Virus record (IMG/VR): IMGVR_UViG_2617270945_000017
DNA length: 6,906 nucleotides
Source: a virus
Taxonomy: Duplodnaviria > Heunggongvirae > Uroviricota > Caudoviricetes
Strand: one strand, 5' to 3'
The notes below the pieces were generated by a model. That model was not told where the DNA came from. It did not search any database and saw only the letters and a list, made by a program, of their open reading frames with translations. Positions 1 through 6,906 of the stretch are shown here, piece by piece. The translations under genes were made by a program, and so were the position numbers. The first letter of the stretch is position 1. Each line of letters begins with the position of its first letter.

Positions 1-1175
<1,175 letters not shown>

Positions 1176-1308
1176 CTAACCATATACTTTGGTAAAAATG
1201 ACTGTTACGGAACAGACCATAGTAATGCCTGCTATTGGCACGGAGCGGGCTGCCTGAGCGCCGTGGGGTCTGCAAACGGTAAGCATACCGATAACTATAC
1301 GCTTGGCC

Positions 1309-1728
1309 TTAGTAACTTTTGCTCCCCTCAATAAATCCGCCATCTTTTATCGGACTGCAATGTCCTTCTTCATCAATCAGTTGCTCGTCTTTCAGGTAGG
1401 TATATCGATAGATAATTGAGCCATTATCCATCTCACCATTGGTTCGTTTCATTAGGAGAGTAAAATGTAACGGGCTGTCCCTATATCGAGCTATTCCATG
1501 AATATTGGCAAGTACCTCATATTGACGCTCAGGTGATAACCCTTTAAATACATCGAGATATCCATGGAATGTTCCATAGAGTGAAGAAGTGTAGATCAGT
1601 CGCTGCTCTGGACCAGTAACTTTAAGAGTAATTTGTTCACCCGTATTACAGGTTAGCTTGGCGGGAAATGTCTCAGCCTGAGCAGAAGAAATAGTCAAGC
1701 TTAAAATTATCAGGTAGCAATATTTCAT
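1309..1728 (-). CDS. Small secreted or periplasmic hypothetical protein, about 139 aa, in a low-GC island
   Basis: ATG at 1728 gives MKYCYLIILSLTISSAQA|ETFPAK..., a typical Sec signal peptide with an AQA cleavage motif. The mature part has two Cys. The region is visibly AT-rich compared with its flanks. The Shine-Dalgarno is weak; the longer ORF in the track to 1830 would need a TTG start and would bury the signal peptide. Confidence 0.55.
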   Translation of the reverse strand: MKYCYLIILSLTISSAQAETFPAKLTCNTGEQITLKVTGPEQRLIYTSSLYGTFHGYLDVFKGLSPERQYEVLANIHGIARYRDSPLHFTLLMKRTNGEMDNGSIIYRYTYLKDEQLIDEEGHCSPIKDGGFIEGSKSY

Positions 1729-2043
1729 GTGATTAGAATGTCCAAAACTAACATGTATACTCGGGATTCTATAACTAGTTGGATGTAGACCCAAGATGTA
1801 TTGGACTATTCTTCGGTTGTAGTTGGTCAAATCATATATTTTATGTCAGCAATGTCTACTTTTGGCACATAGCAGACCAGAGACACTGGCGTAAAGCCAT
1901 GGAGGATCGGTGGGAGGAGGTAAAAATCCTCTCATGCAAAAAATACGCAAAATCGATAACAGTTGGAAATCATTCAATACTCGCACTATCGGAAGTTCAC
2001 CAGCCAGCCGCAGCACGTTCTTGCATACGACGAGCCTGCGGTT

Positions 2044-2598
2044 TCATTTATCTCCGACCGGAAACATCTTATACAGTGTCGATACACCAACATCATAGAT
2101 GATCGCTACCTTCTGGCGAGGAATTCCTGCTGCAATTAATCGTCCGGCCTGCTCCCATTGTTCTGGTGTAAGTTTGGGGCGACGTCCACCAATTCGTCCC
2201 TGTGCGCGAGCTGCTTCCAGTCCAGCTTTTGTTCGTTCAACAATCAGTTCACGCTCCATTTCAGCGAGGGCACCCATCACATGAAAGAAAAAGCGCCCCA
2301 TTGGGGTACTGGTATCAATTGAATCCGTCAGACTACGAAAGTTGATACCTCGTTCGCGCAACTCCTCCACCAGCACGACAAGATGCCGCATACTGCGCCC
2401 CAGTCGGTCCAGTTTCCAGACCACCAGCGTGTCACCTGCCGATAATGTCCTGAGCAGCTTTTTCAGTCCTGGTCTGTCGGACTTTGTACCGCTTATCTTG
2501 TCTTCAAAAATCAGCTCACATCCTGCACAGTTCAGCGCATTACGTTGTAGATCGGTATTCTGGTCATTTGTTGATACACGTACATAGCCAATAAGCAT
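2044..2598 (-). CDS. Serine recombinase, DNA invertase of the Hin/Gin/Cin/Pin family, 184 aa
   Basis: ATG at 2598 is preceded by AGGGGGA 7 nt upstream. The N-terminus MLIGYVRVSTNDQNTDLQRNAL has the catalytic-Ser motif of small serine recombinases; the protein also has GRIGGRRPKLT and a C-terminal HTH (VGVSTLYK). It resembles E. coli e14 Pin and phage Mu Gin over its whole length, from memory. The 196-aa ORF in the track starts 12 codons further upstream. Confidence 0.88.
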   Translation of the reverse strand: MLIGYVRVSTNDQNTDLQRNALNCAGCELIFEDKISGTKSDRPGLKKLLRTLSAGDTLVVWKLDRLGRSMRHLVVLVEELRERGINFRSLTDSIDTSTPMGRFFFHVMGALAEMERELIVERTKAGLEAARAQGRIGGRRPKLTPEQWEQAGRLIAAGIPRQKVAIIYDVGVSTLYKMFPVGDK

Positions 2599-2655
2599 GT
2601 TAAATCCCCCTGGTAAAAGCAGGAATGATGCCATTTGCTCGTTATTTCTGCATTT

Positions 2656-3217
2656 TCATATACGAAGGTTTTCGAGAGCCGTTTTCACCGTGCCATCCGA
2701 TTTGATATCACCAAACGGATTCTTGCGGCTTAACAGCAGAGCACGAAGCGCGGTAAGCAACTGGTCGTTTCGCCCCTTCTCCAGGCTGGCACCGGATGCC
2801 TCCACCACGCTGCAAAGCTCCTCCTGCAACATATCAAAGTAGTCATCATCCAGATCGGTGGCAGGTGTGCCGGTCTGGGGGTTACCACGGGTATAAGCCC
2901 CTGGACTCCAGTTCTTCCGCCTGGCGGGTCAGGCACAAAATCTCCCGCGGGTCGTTAGTGCCGACATAGAAATTGCGCACAGGTCTGGTTTCACGAACTG
3001 GTTGCGGTTCCGCCTCCTGCGCTCTCTCAGTCAGGCGCGGGAAATGTCTGCGTGTATCTCCTTCACAACGGTGAGCCACACGCCCACTCTGACGTAACTT
3101 GCTTGCTGACTGCAGAACGCGCTGCCGTGAGTAACCTGCAAAAGCATCCGCAATGTCTCCGGAAGTACACCCCGGATGGGCTTCAATGAATTTCTGAACT
3201 TCATTCAAAAGACTCAT
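2656..3217 (-). pseudogene. Phage early gene split by a frameshift into two fragments (2882..3217 and 2656..2928); N-terminal part looks winged-helix-like
   Basis: ATG at 3217 with GGGGGTGA upstream, 2 nt after the TGA stop of the replication gene. This frame stops at 2882..2884. The +1 frame is open from 2928 to a TGA at 2656..2658 and reads as plausible protein ([30 protein letters not shown]...[14 protein letters not shown]...) with no start codon of its own. A CCCC run at 2898..2901 sits in the overlap. Confidence 0.5.
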
Positions 3218-3219
3218 AA

Positions 3220-4110
3220 TCACCCCCTGAATCCTGCCGGGATCTGGCTGTAGTCCACATTGTCGTAACTGGCTTTGAAGTACGGGTCTTCACGTTTTTC
3301 TGTGTGCGTGCTGACGGACGGCGATAAGCGCAGGGAAAGCTCATCCCATTTTTCCCGCAACTTCGACGGGCTGAGCACGTTACGGCACCAGAACGGATCG
3401 CGGCTGACGCGGCTGTACATCTCGCAGATTTGTTTGTGAGTACGACCATCCTGCACACACATCAGGCGAATTTCGTTTGCCCAGGCTGTCCAGTTAGGTT
3501 CTTTGGGACGAACCACCTCGCCGTCACATTCGGCGGCCTGCTCGTACAGGGCGATGATTTTTTTCCAGAGCCACTGTGCGCAGGTCAAATCATCCTGCGT
3601 TCCCCACTGGCGCTTTTTAGGGCTGAATACAACCGCATCAGGATGGCGAGTTAAAAAATCCTGTTCATCCATCTGCGTGTCCGGTTGCGAAGCGTCCGGA
3701 CGAGAAGGTTTTTTATCTGATGGATCATGTTTTGATTTTACTGACGGATCCCCGCCAGATTCTGACGGGTGAAAACCCGCTTTTTTGCCAGATTTCGACG
3801 CATCAAATTTTGACGGGTCAGATTTTGATGCGTCAGATTTTGACGGGTCAGAATCTGACAGTTGAGAAAATGCCGCTGCCTGAAGCTTCGCAACGTTAAG
3901 CTGATAAACATTCGACGCATTGCGGTTATCCGGTCTTAAGTCAGATTTCGTAATTGCACCTGACGTGCATTGCTCAAGTTTTTTAGCCAGCACAAAACTG
4001 GCTTTTTTATAGCCATTGAAAACCAGCCGTAAGTAGCCAGGTGTTGAGCCAACTTTTCCGGCCAACTCGCCCTGCTGTTCTTTGGTTAAAGAGTCCCAAT
4101 ACGCTTTCAT
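3220..4110 (-). CDS. Replication-initiator-like protein with N-terminal Cro/YdaS-like HTH and an iteron-encoded repeat linker (lambda O-like architecture), about 296 aa
   Basis: ATG at 4110 with GGAGGT 9 nt upstream. The N-terminus MKAYWDSLTKEQQGELAGKVGSTPGYLRLVFNGYKKASFVLAKKLEQCTSGAITKSDLRPD resembles YdaS/Cro-type HTH proteins, including the ...LRPD ending. The middle has pentapeptide repeats (SKSDA/SKSDP/SKFDA) encoded by tandem 15-bp DNA repeats. It sits directly divergent from the repressor. The C-terminal domain was not identified. The 381-aa ORF in the track is an upstream extension. Confidence 0.7.
   Translation of the reverse strand: MKAYWDSLTKEQQGELAGKVGSTPGYLRLVFNGYKKASFVLAKKLEQCTSGAITKSDLRPDNRNASNVYQLNVAKLQAAAFSQLSDSDPSKSDASKSDPSKFDASKSGKKAGFHPSESGGDPSVKSKHDPSDKKPSRPDASQPDTQMDEQDFLTRHPDAVVFSPKKRQWGTQDDLTCAQWLWKKIIALYEQAAECDGEVVRPKEPNWTAWANEIRLMCVQDGRTHKQICEMYSRVSRDPFWCRNVLSPSKLREKWDELSLRLSPSVSTHTEKREDPYFKASYDNVDYSQIPAGFRG
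3737..3862. repeat. Iteron array, putative phage replication origin embedded in the replication gene
   Basis: 15-bp units of form TCAGATTTTGACGGG: four contiguous copies at 3803..3862 (TCAAATTTTGACGGG, TCAGATTTTGATGCG, TCAGATTTTGACGGG, TCAGAATCTGACAGT), two more at 3755..3769 and 3788..3802, and a partial copy near 3737. An AT-rich stretch lies alongside at about 3700..3745. Confidence 0.65.
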
Positions 4111-4112
4111 AC

Positions 4113-4137
4113 AATATGTACCTCCGGTGTACATATT
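4113..4137. promoter_or_regulatory. Palindromic operator candidate overlapping the Shine-Dalgarno and start of the Cro-like gene
   Basis: AATATGTAC-ctccggt-GTACATATT is a perfect 9-bp inverted repeat with a 7-bp spacer. It shares the core TGTAC-N7-GTACA with the sites at 4165..4185 and 4921..4939. Confidence 0.6.
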
Positions 4138-4164
4138 ACATGATTGAAATGAACCTTCAAGATA

Positions 4165-4185
4165 CTTGTACCTTAACGGTACAAG
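4165..4185. promoter_or_regulatory. Palindromic operator candidate overlapping the -35 of the repressor promoter
   Basis: CTTGTACC-ttaac-GGTACAAG is a perfect 8-bp inverted repeat. Candidate repressor promoter on the + strand: -35 TTGTAC (4166..4171), 17 bp, -10 TTTAAT (4189..4194), with the transcription start near the A of the ATG at 4201. Candidate promoter for the Cro-like gene on the - strand: TTGAAG, about 16 to 17 bp, TAATAT. Confidence 0.6.
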
Positions 4186-4200
4186 GGTTTTAATTTCGTT

Positions 4201-4875
4201 ATGAAAACAATCCATGACATCCGGCGGTCTAACGCCAGAAAACTGAGAGATGGTGTTGGCGGGAATTCTTCCTTTGCCACTATGATTGATCGCGAGCCAA
4301 CCCAGACCAGCAGGTTTATGGGAGATGGTGCTACTAAAAATATCGGTGACAGCATGGCACGACACATCGAAAAATGTTTCGACCTACCTGTCGGATGGCT
4401 CGATCAAGAACACCAGACAACGAACATCACAAAAAAACCTGATGTTTCAATCACTAATAAACAAATCACATTAGTCCCTGTCATATCATGGGTACAGGCC
4501 GGAGCATGGAAAGAAGTTGGATATTCTGAGGTTGATTTGAGCACAGCAGAAACGTATCCCTGCCCTGTACCCTGTGGGGAAATGACTTATATCTTGCGGG
4601 TGATAGGTGATTCAATGATTGATGAGTACCGCCCGGGAGACATGATTTTTGTCGATCCTGAAGTACCTGCCTGCCACGGTGACGACGTTATTGCATTGAT
4701 GCACGATACAGGTGAAACCACCTTCAAAAGGTTAATAGAAGATGGGACACAGCGTTATCTCAAAGCGTTAAACCCAAACTGGCCTGAGCCTTACATTAAG
4801 ATCAACGGTAATTGCTCTATAATTGGTACAGTGATTTTCTCAGGAAAACCAAGAAGATACAAAATCAAAGCCTAA
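4201..4875 (+). CDS. CI-like phage repressor with XRE-type HTH and LexA/S24 autopeptidase domain, 224 aa
   Basis: The C-terminal domain carries the S24 Ser-Lys dyad motifs (RVIGDSM... and ...TTFKRL) and WVQAG upstream. The N-terminus has an HTH-like ...IGDSMARHIEKCFDLPVGWLD. The gene is divergent from the Cro-like gene across the operators. There is no Shine-Dalgarno before the ATG at 4201, which fits a leaderless transcript. Confidence 0.85.
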   Translation: MKTIHDIRRSNARKLRDGVGGNSSFATMIDREPTQTSRFMGDGATKNIGDSMARHIEKCFDLPVGWLDQEHQTTNITKKPDVSITNKQITLVPVISWVQAGAWKEVGYSEVDLSTAETYPCPVPCGEMTYILRVIGDSMIDEYRPGDMIFVDPEVPACHGDDVIALMHDTGETTFKRLIEDGTQRYLKALNPNWPEPYIKINGNCSIIGTVIFSGKPRRYKIKA

Positions 4876-4887
4876 TCAATGTTTATG

Positions 4888-4911
4888 AACCTGCTTCGGC
4901 AGGTTTTTTTA
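4888..4911 (+). terminator. Rho-independent terminator after the repressor gene
   Basis: AACCTGC-TTCG-GCAGGTT is a 7-bp GC-containing stem with a UUCG loop, followed by a run of seven T. It starts 13 bp after the repressor TAA. Confidence 0.85.
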
Positions 4912-4914
4912 TAC

Positions 4915-4947
4915 TTGACAATGTACCTTTGAGATACATAATGTACC
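4915..4947 (+). promoter_or_regulatory. Near-consensus sigma-70 promoter with an embedded operator copy (PL-like)
   Basis: -35 TTGACA (4915..4920), 16-bp spacer, -10 CATAAT (4937..4942). The spacer contains ATGTAC-ctttgag-ATACAT (4921..4939), the same TGTAC-N7-(G/A)TACA motif as the two operators at 4113..4185. A second ATGTACC follows at 4941..4947. Confidence 0.65.
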
Positions 4948-5119
4948 CAAGAGAAACAACGAACAGGCAGGACGCCCACGAAGTAGCCGCCTGGGGCATA
5001 TGAAGTCCAGGATGATTCGTTGAGTCATGTTGTGCCACTAGGCACTCATGTTAAAGCAGGTGTATGAAATGAAAGTCCAGATTTTAAACAATAACTGTGA
5101 AGTCGTTTGGGCGTAAAAC

Positions 5120-5326
5120 ATGACCGCGCGTAGACCAAGGGAGGAAAAAGTGGGAATAGTTAGAAATCAAGCAGATATATTGAAAATCAGCTCTGAATTG
5201 CTTGGAGTTTTGAAAAGTGAGCTCACCGCACATGGCATCGAGCCCACTGACGAAAATTTAAGTTGGGTTTTGTCGATTATTCAACAATCACTCAAGCCCA
5301 GCCTCAGCAAACTTTTTATCGAGTAG
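5120..5326 (+). CDS. Small hypothetical protein, 58 to 68 aa; start ambiguous between ATG 5120 and GTG 5150
   Basis: GTG at 5150 is preceded by AGGGAGG with a 5-nt spacer. ATG at 5120 has no Shine-Dalgarno but lies 3 nt after the stop of a 15-codon ORF (5069..5116) that has a good AGGTG site, so translational coupling is possible. No homology recognised. Confidence 0.45.
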   Translation: MTARRPREEKVGIVRNQADILKISSELLGVLKSELTAHGIEPTDENLSWVLSIIQQSLKPSLSKLFIE

Positions 5327-5479
5327 TGCTTCGAACTTATCGTAAAGCTTGCTTATGTCGTCTATCGGGTTTTCTGACGTACTGTAATTTTTATCTGATG
5401 TCATGGCAGCAGTCTGATATGCAGTGTGTGTCTTAACCGATAGTTGGAATAAATAAAGAATTTTTTCTTCTTTGGTCAT
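5288..5479 (-). CDS. Small hypothetical protein, 63 aa, AT-rich, convergent with and overlapping the previous ORF
   Basis: ATG at 5479 with AAGGA about 8 nt upstream gives MTKEEKILYLFQLSVKTHTAYQTAAMTSDKNYSTSENPIDDISKLYDKFEALLDKKFAEAGLE. Its 3' end overlaps the ORF 5120..5326 by 39 bp. No homology recognised. Confidence 0.45.
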   Translation of the reverse strand: MTKEEKILYLFQLSVKTHTAYQTAAMTSDKNYSTSENPIDDISKLYDKFEALLDKKFAEAGLE

Positions 5480-5770
5480 AACTATTTCCTTCTTGGCTAT
5501 ATGAAAACACCAAGATACCACCGAGCCTGAAGTGGTGAAAAGACAGGCACATAACAGCTAAGTATTTTCAACCAGAGAGAATCCTTAGCGTTGTGGTGAA
5601 TGCGGCTCAGCGCACGCGGGTTAAGGTTGAGGCTGACAGTCGACCTTCTGTGGATACCCACCCGCCTGGTGTGCAACCTTCGCCAGGCACCGGGAGGCAC
5701 CCGGTACCACAACTTTATGCTGTGTGTAGTCCTCGCGGTACCAGTTTGTACACTTGCTTCCGGCTGGTAT

Positions 5771-5870
5771 CGCTCTTTTTACAAAACAGAGAAGAACATC
5801 ACCGGACGACGGGCTCATAACCCAATCCATCCGGGCGGCAGTCACCGCAGGTGTTCTTCTCTGTTTTGTG
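5771..5870 (+). promoter_or_regulatory. boxA-like motif followed by a long perfect hairpin in the leader of the downstream operon
   Basis: CGCTCTTTTTACAA at 5771..5784 resembles the boxA consensus (CGCTCTTTA / TGCTCTTTAACAA). ACAAAACAGAGAAGAACA at 5781..5798 is the exact reverse complement of 5852..5869, giving an 18-bp perfect stem around a roughly 50-nt loop. It ends about 35 nt before the Shine-Dalgarno of the CDS at 5918. Confidence 0.4.
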
Positions 5871-6280: not shown

Positions 6281-6345
6281 TATCGTTTTTAATTAACTGA
6301 TTATTTATCTCATCACTGAATATCTTTATATAGTGAGGACTTATT

Positions 6346-6906
6346 ATGTCTCAGAACTTAGACGCAACCGCAATTAATCAAATCCATGCCCTTATTTCTG
6401 CTCAGGGTGTTAATGAAATTATCAGTAAGATTGGTGCCGATGCTGTGGCATTGCCTGAGAATTTCCGCATTCATGATCTGGAAAAATTTAATTTAAATCG
6501 CTTCCGTTTCCGTGGTGCGCTTTCCACTACCAGCATCGATGACTTTACCCGTTATTCTAAAGATCTTGCAGATGAAGGCACCCGCTGCTTTATCGATGCT
6601 GATAATATGCGTGCCGTCAGTGTGCTTAACCTGGGTACTATTGATGAACCAGGTCACGCAGATAACACCGCCACTCTCAAACTGAAAAAGACAGCACCGT
6701 TCTCTGCTCTGTTGTCTGTTAACGGCGAGCGTAACTCCCAGAAGTCACTGGCAGAATGGATTGAAGACTGGGCCGACTATCTTGTGGGCTTTGATGCTAA
6801 TGGTGACGCTATTCAGGCAACAAAAGCGGCTGCGGCAGTCCGTAAAATCACGATTGAAGCAAACCAGACCGCTGATTTTGAAGATAATGACTTCAGCGGC
6901 AAACGC
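6346..6906 (+). CDS. Conserved hypothetical prophage protein, 3'-partial, runs off the window (possibly YfdQ/DUF2303-like, recalled from memory only)
   Basis: ATG at 6346 with GTGAGGA 5 nt upstream. The frame is open for 187 codons to the window end: [48 protein letters not shown]... Confidence 0.75.

Follow-up and report, generated by a model that had tools for sequence, protein, structure and literature searches.

The window analyzed here, a 6,906-nucleotide stretch of viral DNA, holds an AT-rich region between an IS5-family insertion sequence and a Pin-type serine invertase. The sole sizeable open reading frame in this low-GC patch lies on the minus strand. Its longest reading, from a TTG start, covers 1309..1830 (173 aa); the ATG at 1728 gives a product of 139 aa, and this start position is common to nearly all homologs. 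RefSeq lists the 139-aa product as a "hypothetical protein" (WP_001333214.1), and we refer to the gene as ORF139. The features of the region are:

1..1175, minus strand: IS5-family element (ISKpn26-like), truncated at base 1 of the window, some 20 bp short of its far end
115..1107, minus strand: IS5 transposase ORF; matching records read "IS5-like element ISKpn26 family transposase"
1176..1179: CTAA, a YTAR-type target tetranucleotide at the junction of the IS5 and the island
1180..1308, minus strand: 3' flank of ORF139, the remnant of a spacer of about 315 bp toward a 488-aa gene; weak hairpins only
1273..1873, minus strand: core cassette common to several genera, 600 bp, from DNA-level comparison
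1309..1728, minus strand: ORF139 (WP_001333214.1), 139 aa, from the ORF list, RefSeq and homologs
1311..1309, minus strand: ORF139 stop codon
1674..1312, minus strand: codons of the predicted mature ORF139 protein, 121 aa
1728..1675, minus strand: codons of the predicted ORF139 signal peptide
1766..1794, minus strand: best-conserved non-coding block, promoter-like TTGGGT-17-TAGAAT, from a five-taxon comparison
1831..1858, minus strand: second promoter-like site, TAGACA-16-TATGAT, 10/12 consensus matches, partly conserved
1938..2043: sequence at prophage ends, about 100 bp, in more than 3000 E. coli genomes
1976..1991, minus strand: surrogate IS5 end CGATAGTGCGAGTATT, the exact outer boundary of the ORF139 and IS5 unit on plasmids
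2044..2598, minus strand: Pin-type serine invertase (Resolvase + HTH_7), most likely extent, 184 aa; right-hand neighbor of the island

The sharp drop in GC content at about 1300..1900 that was first noticed in the bare sequence is borne out, at 40.1% against 48.0% for the whole window; 1180..2043 stands at 42.7% and the IS5 part at 53.5%. Because other parts of the window are equally AT-rich (4876..5600 at 41% GC, 6301..6500 at 35.5% GC), the dip over 1300..1900 is real but not exceptional. ORF139 itself (40.0% GC, GC3 35%) differs in composition from the neighboring phage genes, as a moron should; pin has 49.5% GC and a GC3 of 44%.

Position in a deleted e14-like prophage

The window is a doubly deleted e14-like remnant. 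Intact e14-like prophages carry, in this order, baseplate genes, the tail fiber gene, the invertible P segment and pin, followed in some cases by a GIY-YIG gene and then by ORF139, the 488-aa gene and the prophage end. In the window, 2501..2677 comprises the 5' end of pin with its crossover site, and 2662..2896 matches the N-terminal constant part of the tail-fiber gene in intact relatives; the P segment of about 1.9 kb is absent between the pin 5' end and this tail-fiber stub. The stub is in turn fused at about 2896 to early-region DNA (ymfL/yfdP/ymfK-like), the whole structural module being deleted. ORF139 only seems adjacent to early genes because the P segment and the structural module have been lost. 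Its placement at the distal end of an early operon in the original prediction was therefore mistaken: in intact relatives the gene lies past pin and occupies the late, attR-proximal end. The whole window was not found as one contiguous stretch in any complete E. coli genome.

In K-12 e14, homology to the window ends exactly at the pin stop codon (2043), and mcrA then follows, right after pinE. The prophage e14 carries the defense genes Lit and McrA, and its PinE inverts a P segment of 1.8 kb (PMC12529663). Since K-12 e14 has mcrA at this position, and e14 carries Lit and McrA, the ORF139 region is cargo in a known variable slot. Occupancy of the slot varies among related prophages: at least 80% of 1180..2043 is present in 38 of 5426 complete E. 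coli genomes, and K-12 e14 has mcrA instead. The description of 1180..2043 as a cargo island holds as far as cargo is concerned, but the island is truncated; E. coli relatives continue into the 488-aa nuclease-like gene, which the IS5 has severed.

The portable cassette and its flanks

The core shared among genera (1273..1873) comprises ORF139 with about 145 bp upstream and about 36 bp downstream. Pectobacterium DNA is 92% identical over this full extent, and Klebsiella and Citrobacter DNA is 76–81% identical over 1273/1304..1747. The best-conserved non-coding block, with TTGGGT at 1794..1789 and TAGAAT at 1771..1766, lies about 38 nt upstream of the ORF139 ATG, and TCTTGGG and TTATAGAAT within the upstream region are largely invariant across five taxa. 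The two hexamers may represent −35 and −10 elements, and ORF139 probably has its own promoter. Only a weak Shine–Dalgarno sequence precedes the gene, a GGA some 14 nt before the ATG. Downstream of the gene no convincing terminator was found, the hairpins there being no better than those of shuffled sequence (z −0.2 to −0.3), and a search for repeats around the island gave nothing beyond chance.

The 315-bp gap between ORF139 and pin (1729..2043) had been proposed as a possible carrier of the promoter. Its length is confirmed, and the promoter-like elements conserved across genera agree with the proposal, but about 100 bp of the gap (1938..2043) is prophage-end sequence and not cargo. That sequence adjoins nleG7 in an O157:H7 prophage. 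Directly past the pin stop codon, a hairpin at about 2001..2040 has a folding energy of −19.2 kcal/mol and a modest z of −2.0; an Rfam scan of 1180..2043 returned only a sub-threshold partial CssrB match, at this same hairpin.

Conservation and distribution of the family

ORF139 is a genuine conserved protein-coding gene. Comparison with orthologs from Citrobacter, K. pneumoniae and K. aerogenes gives dN/dS values of 0.12, 0.12 and 0.21, respectively, at dS of 0.84–1.27 (Nei–Gojobori), within an overall range of 0.10–0.21 for orthologs in other genera, and these values, the RefSeq annotation and the shared start all uphold the initial reading of 1309..1728 on the minus strand as a 139-aa gene. 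The family is very small: clustering at 90% identity leaves 11 groups of homologs among 5.8 billion proteins, and when 1.84 billion representatives were searched exhaustively with a profile, 7 had E < 1e-10; a second, wider profile gathered 25 clusters of homologs, all unnamed. The statement that no homolog could be recognized is thus correct for characterized proteins but not for proteins as such, about 25 unnamed clusters being in existence. Family members of named origin are all from Enterobacterales (E. coli, Klebsiella, Citrobacter, Pectobacterium, a Salmonella plasmid and Atlantibacter plasmids), and one more comes from a compost metagenome. The identical protein recurs in thousands of E. 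coli assemblies (3497 index blocks). A 21-member alignment has 14 invariant columns, including C124; conservation also extends over EQRLxYxS, GxLDVFxG and the C-terminal IEGxKxY. The invariant residues are largely polar (E41, Q42, R43, D59, E71, E134, K137) or Tyr.

Pfam, NCBIfam and PADLOC returned no match for ORF139, nor Pfam for any of the 21 members, and PHROGs gave one weak match (E 0.006) to a family of unknown function and otherwise noise. The ORF139 profile found nothing among PDB sequences, even at E up to 10; tblastn recovered no relative among 50,697 sequenced phages, and two fixed-peptide-pattern scans over one representative genome per species likewise recovered none. In the literature, no paper mentioning WP_001333214 was found, and a keyword search gave nothing relevant.

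The gene recurs in several settings. Citrobacter and Klebsiella orthologs (71–80% identical) are the terminal genes of lambdoid prophages, where they adjoin SRAP, umuDC and dinI and directly abut chromosomal genes, with no constant partner. The Pectobacterium copy is part of an integrative mobilizable element with a relaxase and tyrosine recombinases; the gene also occurs on IncHI1B plasmids, an IncFIB phage-plasmid and Atlantibacter plasmids, and more distant members either neighbor a phage integrase and excisionase or map to plasmid leading regions. The cassette is autonomous and occupies variable cargo slots in unrelated prophage backbones. Together with the GC deviation and the presence/absence pattern, these backbones and plasmids support the original prediction of a horizontally acquired moron lodged beside an invertase and an insertion sequence.

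Predicted export and fold of the product

The N-terminus of the ORF139 product, MKYCYLIILSLTISSAQA followed by ETFPA, has a basic residue, a hydrophobic core (residues 6–16, mean Kyte–Doolittle 2.15) and an AxA cleavage motif (AQA, then E). Throughout the family the n-, h- and c-regions are preserved, small residues at −3/−1 are retained in 21/21 aligned members, and there is no lipobox. The signal peptide suspected at the outset is borne out by this rule-based reading of the sequence, which also places the cleavage site, and by the conservation in 21 members; Sec export and signal peptidase I cleavage after A18 are predicted with good support. The precursor contains three cysteines, of which C4 lies within the signal peptide and is not conserved. 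The two cysteines noted earlier are those of the mature protein, C27 (nearly invariant) and C124 (invariant).

AlphaFold2, run with the family alignment, returned an all-beta model (pLDDT 86.3, pTM 0.79) in which blocks of the mature part reach 90–96. The long central strands span residues 52–64, 70–82, 85–96, 105–113 and 116–126, the first four strands are short (4–6 residues each), and the model has the form of an eight-stranded up-and-down beta-barrel. The mature protein, which contains 29 charged residues and no Trp, is predicted with good support to be a soluble barrel with one disulfide. When the model was compared with the PDB by Foldseek, the best matches were avidins only, at E about 0.01, TM 0.4–0.56 and identity 5–13%; its structural neighbors also include the Cap15 nucleotide-binding barrel and a putative lipid-binding protein. 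Foldseek against the BFVD viral structures gave no match at E 0.001 or better. The likeness to avidins is one of fold, a calycin-type barrel, and not of family membership. Structure prediction and fold search have thus given the small exported protein proposed at the outset a confident barrel model, with avidins nearest and no characterized homolog.

Mobilization by IS5/ISKpn26

The IS5 end proximal to the transposase start (GGAAGGTGCGAACAAG) abuts the island at 1175, just before the CTAA tetranucleotide; in L031 this copy of IS5 is flanked by CTAA left and right. IS5 usually targets YTAR. The insertion lies 132 bp past the ORF139 stop, inside the spacer to the 488-aa gene, and among complete genomes its junction with ORF139 was found only in NZ_OZ546993.1; in that genome the far side of the IS5 borders unrelated DNA, and the nuclease gene is missing.

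ORF139 is 99–100% identical on IncHI1B plasmids and the IncFIB phage-plasmid. In both settings the segment shared with the window stops at the same base, window 1991, and on the other side it enters an IS5 oriented opposite to that of the window. The boundary sequence CGATAGTGCGAGTATT is identical to the IS5 terminal repeat GGAAGGTGCGAATAAG at 10/16 positions and is inverted relative to the outer IS5 end. On pSAL4596-1 the unit measures 2046 bp and is flanked by TTAA/TTAA (locus L015); on pGS04EC-1 it measures 1935 bp, with a 111-bp deletion beside the IS, and is flanked by TTAG/TTAG (locus L016). The empty sites were rebuilt in silico by joining the flanks with one copy of the repeat and then searched; they are contiguous at 99.7–100% identity in related plasmids, including R27 (NC_002305.1). 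Because of these 4-bp target duplications and intact empty sites, it can be stated that a unit of IS5 and ORF139 has transposed via a surrogate end within the common prophage-end element. The two plasmid copies, L015 and L016, display the complete transposition unit; in the window, the outer end of the IS5 lies beyond base 1.

The IS5 of the window is a separate insertion that lies 34 bp away from the IS5 of the plasmid unit and points the opposite way; IS5 thus has a hotspot in the AT-rich spacer. The 100%-identical plasmid copies could be pure IS5 hitch-hikers and need not reflect selection. The evidence for selection on ORF139 comes from the divergent orthologs.

Discussion

We are highly confident that ORF139 is real and under selection, that it encodes an exported beta-barrel and that it travels as an autonomous cassette. 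The best explanation overall, which we regard as moderately probable, is a self-contained lysogenic-conversion ("moron") cassette for a periplasmic barrel binder. Under this explanation, a sigma-70-type promoter of its own within 1766..1858 would drive a 139-aa preprotein, which Sec would export and signal peptidase I would cut after Ala18. The mature protein of 121 aa would fold in the periplasm into a soluble up-and-down beta-barrel, a C27–C124 disulfide tying its first strands to its last, and would act by binding and not by catalysis. It would most likely bind something arriving at the envelope from the exterior (a lytic enzyme, toxin or phage component, for instance); the main alternative would be a small polar ligand, and the carrier cell would benefit in either case. 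The cassette is swapped at prophage ends and also travels as cargo of the IS5/ISKpn26 unit with its surrogate end at 1991..1976. In the window it is the final remaining cargo of an e14-like prophage that has undergone heavy deletion, severed by an IS5 from the 488-aa gene that usually adjoins it in E. coli.

A role as a periplasmic binder or inhibitor is quite possible, and any one specific target is at best a doubtful proposition. Among binders, known exported accessory proteins of phages and plasmids favor, by analogy, a protein-directed shield or inhibitor. A small-ligand pocket is a serious alternative because so many of the invariant residues are polar or Tyr. They would suit such a pocket, or indeed an enzyme, no less than a surface for binding proteins.

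ORF139 might, then, be a calycin- or avidin-like protein that binds small molecules and sequesters a polar metabolite, a vitamin, a siderophore-like compound or an envelope precursor in the periplasm instead of blocking a protein. The best structural neighbors, namely avidins, Cap15 and the putative lipid-binding protein, are ligand-binding barrels, and the invariant residues, mostly polar or Tyr, lie on the long central strands. However, ORF139 lacks any Trp and hence an avidin-type biotin box, and a Pfam avidin or lipocalin signal is seen in 0/21 members; we consider this alternative rather unlikely. A biotin-binding avidin in the strict sense can be ruled out because the mature protein has no Trp and so no biotin box.

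Very unlikely, in our estimate, is a remote MliC/PliC-type periplasmic lysozyme inhibitor that would guard against c-type lysozyme or against phage or T6SS muramidases. Compartment, size and barrel are shared with MliC/PliC, as are cysteines in the first and last strands, and hhalign aligns the N-terminal YxCDxGxxLxV strand of ORF139 with these proteins. That alignment covers just 20 columns at a probability of 1.2%, however, and PF09864 matches 0/21 members. The loops that define membership (SxSGAxY and YxxxTKG) are missing: the ISASGA[RK]Y and W[ST]KG motifs of solved MliC/PliC proteins are absent from the ORF139 alignment, which offers only a loose YxxxxKG.

Still less credible is a two-gene anti-phage system in which ORF139 would be the envelope sensor or regulator of the 488-aa protein, a PD-(D/E)xK nuclease (DUF4297/Cap4/Mrr-like). 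The 488-aa gene (L002:7348-8814) encodes an ERGRD...LIQCKK motif and weakly matches LmuA (E 0.0036); its homologs span many phyla, some being labeled DUF4297, restriction endonuclease or Mrr_cat by their sources. The protein looks like a stand-alone nuclease-type defense candidate. A joint system would agree with the LmuA match and with these labels, with the constant adjacency of the two genes on the same strand in E. coli e14-like prophages, and with the presence of the restriction gene mcrA in the same slot in K-12. But the two occur together only in E. coli e14-like prophages: ORF139 lacks the nuclease as a companion in Klebsiella, Citrobacter, Pectobacterium, Atlantibacter and every plasmid setting, and the nuclease family is found in many phyla without the ORF139 family. 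The two genes are set apart by 315 bp of AT-rich spacer, ORF139 has come intact through IS5 events that removed the nuclease, and a periplasmic protein cannot directly touch a cytoplasmic nuclease. The two-gene system is rejected because the distribution of the nuclease is unrelated to that of ORF139.

Least probable of all is a miniature outer-membrane beta-barrel of the Ail/Lom/PagL/NspA type: Lom and Ail genes do occupy similar prophage positions, and the C-terminal residue of ORF139 is an aromatic Tyr, but the mature protein has just 121 aa with first strands of 4–6 residues, it carries a conserved disulfide and 29 charged residues, its C-terminal GFIEGSKSY does not alternate in hydrophobicity as a BAM beta-signal does, and soluble barrels outscore outer-membrane barrels in both fold searches. 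The BAM beta-signal consists of alternating hydrophobic residues at the C-terminus, with an aromatic residue last; only the terminal Tyr fits, and an outer-membrane barrel is rejected on length, charge, disulfide and C-terminus.

ORF139 is an ordinary kind of phage cargo gene, from an undescribed family, and overturns nothing in current understanding. What is gained is a fold predicted with confidence, a portable cassette of defined extent and a documented surrogate-end route with IS5; the latter is a concrete path by which prophage cargo reaches conjugative plasmids. Thousands of E. coli assemblies and IncHI-type resistance plasmids carry exactly this protein, which has no name and no Pfam family. 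Small exported proteins from prophage ends have repeatedly proved to be exclusion, immunity or host-interaction factors, which makes a portable 600-bp cassette with a confident barrel model a cheap target for phenotyping. A bolder claim, to which we attach little probability, would make ORF139 the founding member of an undescribed avidin-fold periplasmic family found only on Enterobacterales mobile elements that confers a new kind of envelope-level protection, and would make surrogate-end export by IS5/ISKpn26 general. ORF139 might in that case block phage genome entry or neutralize an incoming lytic enzyme or toxin, for example, by a mechanism unrelated to Sp, Sim, Cor, Llp or MliC, and prophage cargo would generally be exported to plasmids by surrogate-end transposition out of the conserved 100-bp prophage-end element.

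Comparison with known systems

Several known systems resemble the ORF139 locus in part. The closest in position is mcrA of e14, whose slot, directly after pinE, ORF139 fills; nleG-type effector genes offer a second positional parallel, nleG7 lying beside the same 100-bp element in an O157:H7 prophage. The bor and lom genes of lambda and the periplasmic sodC of Gifsy-2-type prophages are morons at prophage ends. Like the morons of lambdoid and e14 prophages, ORF139 has deviating GC content, a promoter-like region, a presence/absence pattern and a product predicted to be exported; unlike them, it also travels on plasmids and an integrative element, and it has no sequence relationship to mcrA, bor, lom, sodC or nleG.

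At the level of the protein, ORF139 shares its barrel with avidin and streptavidin, but identity is only 5–13%, there is no Pfam avidin match and no biotin box, and nothing points to tetramerization. With MliC/PliC it has in common a small periplasmic barrel, cysteines in an N-terminal and a C-terminal strand and a similar first-strand motif; the signature loops are lacking, and the profile–profile probability stands at 1.2%.

At the level of transfer, the nearest parallel is ISEcp1, whose units mobilize adjacent DNA through a surrogate end. The ORF139 unit likewise combines a complete insertion sequence with adjacent DNA, a terminal-repeat-like end, target duplications and empty sites. It differs in its use of IS5/ISKpn26 with a 4-bp YTAR duplication, and in its cargo, which is a prophage moron and not a resistance gene.

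Mobility of ORF139 and its flanks

The gene for the predicted exported 139-aa protein (ORF139) and a copy of IS5/ISKpn26 transposed as one unit of 1.9-2.0 kb, using the surrogate end CGATAGTGCGAGTATT. The empty sites for these units are intact in related plasmids, R27 among them.

L015:6738-8783, unit of ORF139 and the IS5/ISKpn26 copy in the IncHI1B plasmid pSAL4596-1, TTAA duplication
L016:6738-8672, the same unit in the phage-plasmid pGS04EC-1, TTAG duplication
Window 1976..1991, surrogate IS5-like end, inside the common prophage-end element
Window 1938..2043, prophage-end sequence of ~100 bp

This common element lies at prophage ends in >3000 of 5426 E. coli genomes, in up to 7 places per genome, with one copy adjoining nleG7 in O157:H7, and it contains the hairpin that follows the stop codon of pin, the serine invertase gene. 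PGAP sometimes annotates it as a 'capsid protein' fragment. It also matches the 3'-terminal part of CssrB, a Shigella sRNA, below threshold (22 bits; gathering score 76).

IS5 has a local hotspot in the AT-rich spacer that follows ORF139. This spacer has received two independent insertions, 34 bp apart and in opposite orientations, and also carries a 111-bp deletion adjoining the IS; in each of these spacer events the downstream nuclease gene was cut off or lost.

Window 1176 (= L001:8997, in an E. coli relative), IS5 insertion junction of the window's copy
L001:8963, equivalent of the IS5 junction in the pSAL4596-1 copy
L001:9074, equivalent of the IS5 junction in the pGS04EC-1 copy

Deletions and other features in the window

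The invertible P segment (~1.9 kb) has been deleted from the window, and within 2600..2900 pin is joined directly to a tail-fibre stub at a single pix-like site. The stub in turn fuses to early-region DNA at ~2896; the structural module is therefore missing entirely.

2662..2677 (approximate), pix-like crossover site ACGAAGGTTTTCGAGA, single copy
2662..2896, N-terminal stub of the tail-fibre gene
3789..3852, tandem 15/30-bp repeat, 4.3 copies of CAGATTTTGACGGGT
5560..5782, plus strand, STnc100 sRNA match (Rfam, full model length)

The tandem repeat lies inside a 381-aa early ORF (3220..4365, minus strand), where it encodes a repetitive DPSKSDASKS stretch; an Rfam match to mir-5880 arising from it is spurious. 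The STnc100 match, to the right of the cI-like repressor gene, scores 39.5 bits (E 4.7e-06; Rfam gathering score 47).

Genes neighbouring ORF139

L002:10054-10827, plus strand, LEM-3-like GIY-YIG gene
L017:5255-5995, plus strand, 246-aa ORF
L002:7348-8814, minus strand, 488-aa gene (equivalent L001:7349-8814), absent from the window

The LEM-3-like gene lies between pin and ORF139 in many E. coli relatives and is lacking in the window. On an Atlantibacter plasmid, the ORF139 homologue (39% identity) is preceded and overlapped by the 246-aa ORF, which had no Pfam match and in which a GIY-YIG-like motif was read by eye alone.

In the E. coli relatives, the 488-aa gene lies downstream of ORF139. 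Its product belongs to a family spanning many phyla, carries a PD-(D/E)xK-like motif (ERGRD...LIQCKK) and weakly matches LmuA; sources label some homologues DUF4297, restriction endonuclease or Mrr_cat. The gene is a candidate for a stand-alone defence nuclease and occupies the slot held by mcrA in the K-12 prophage e14.
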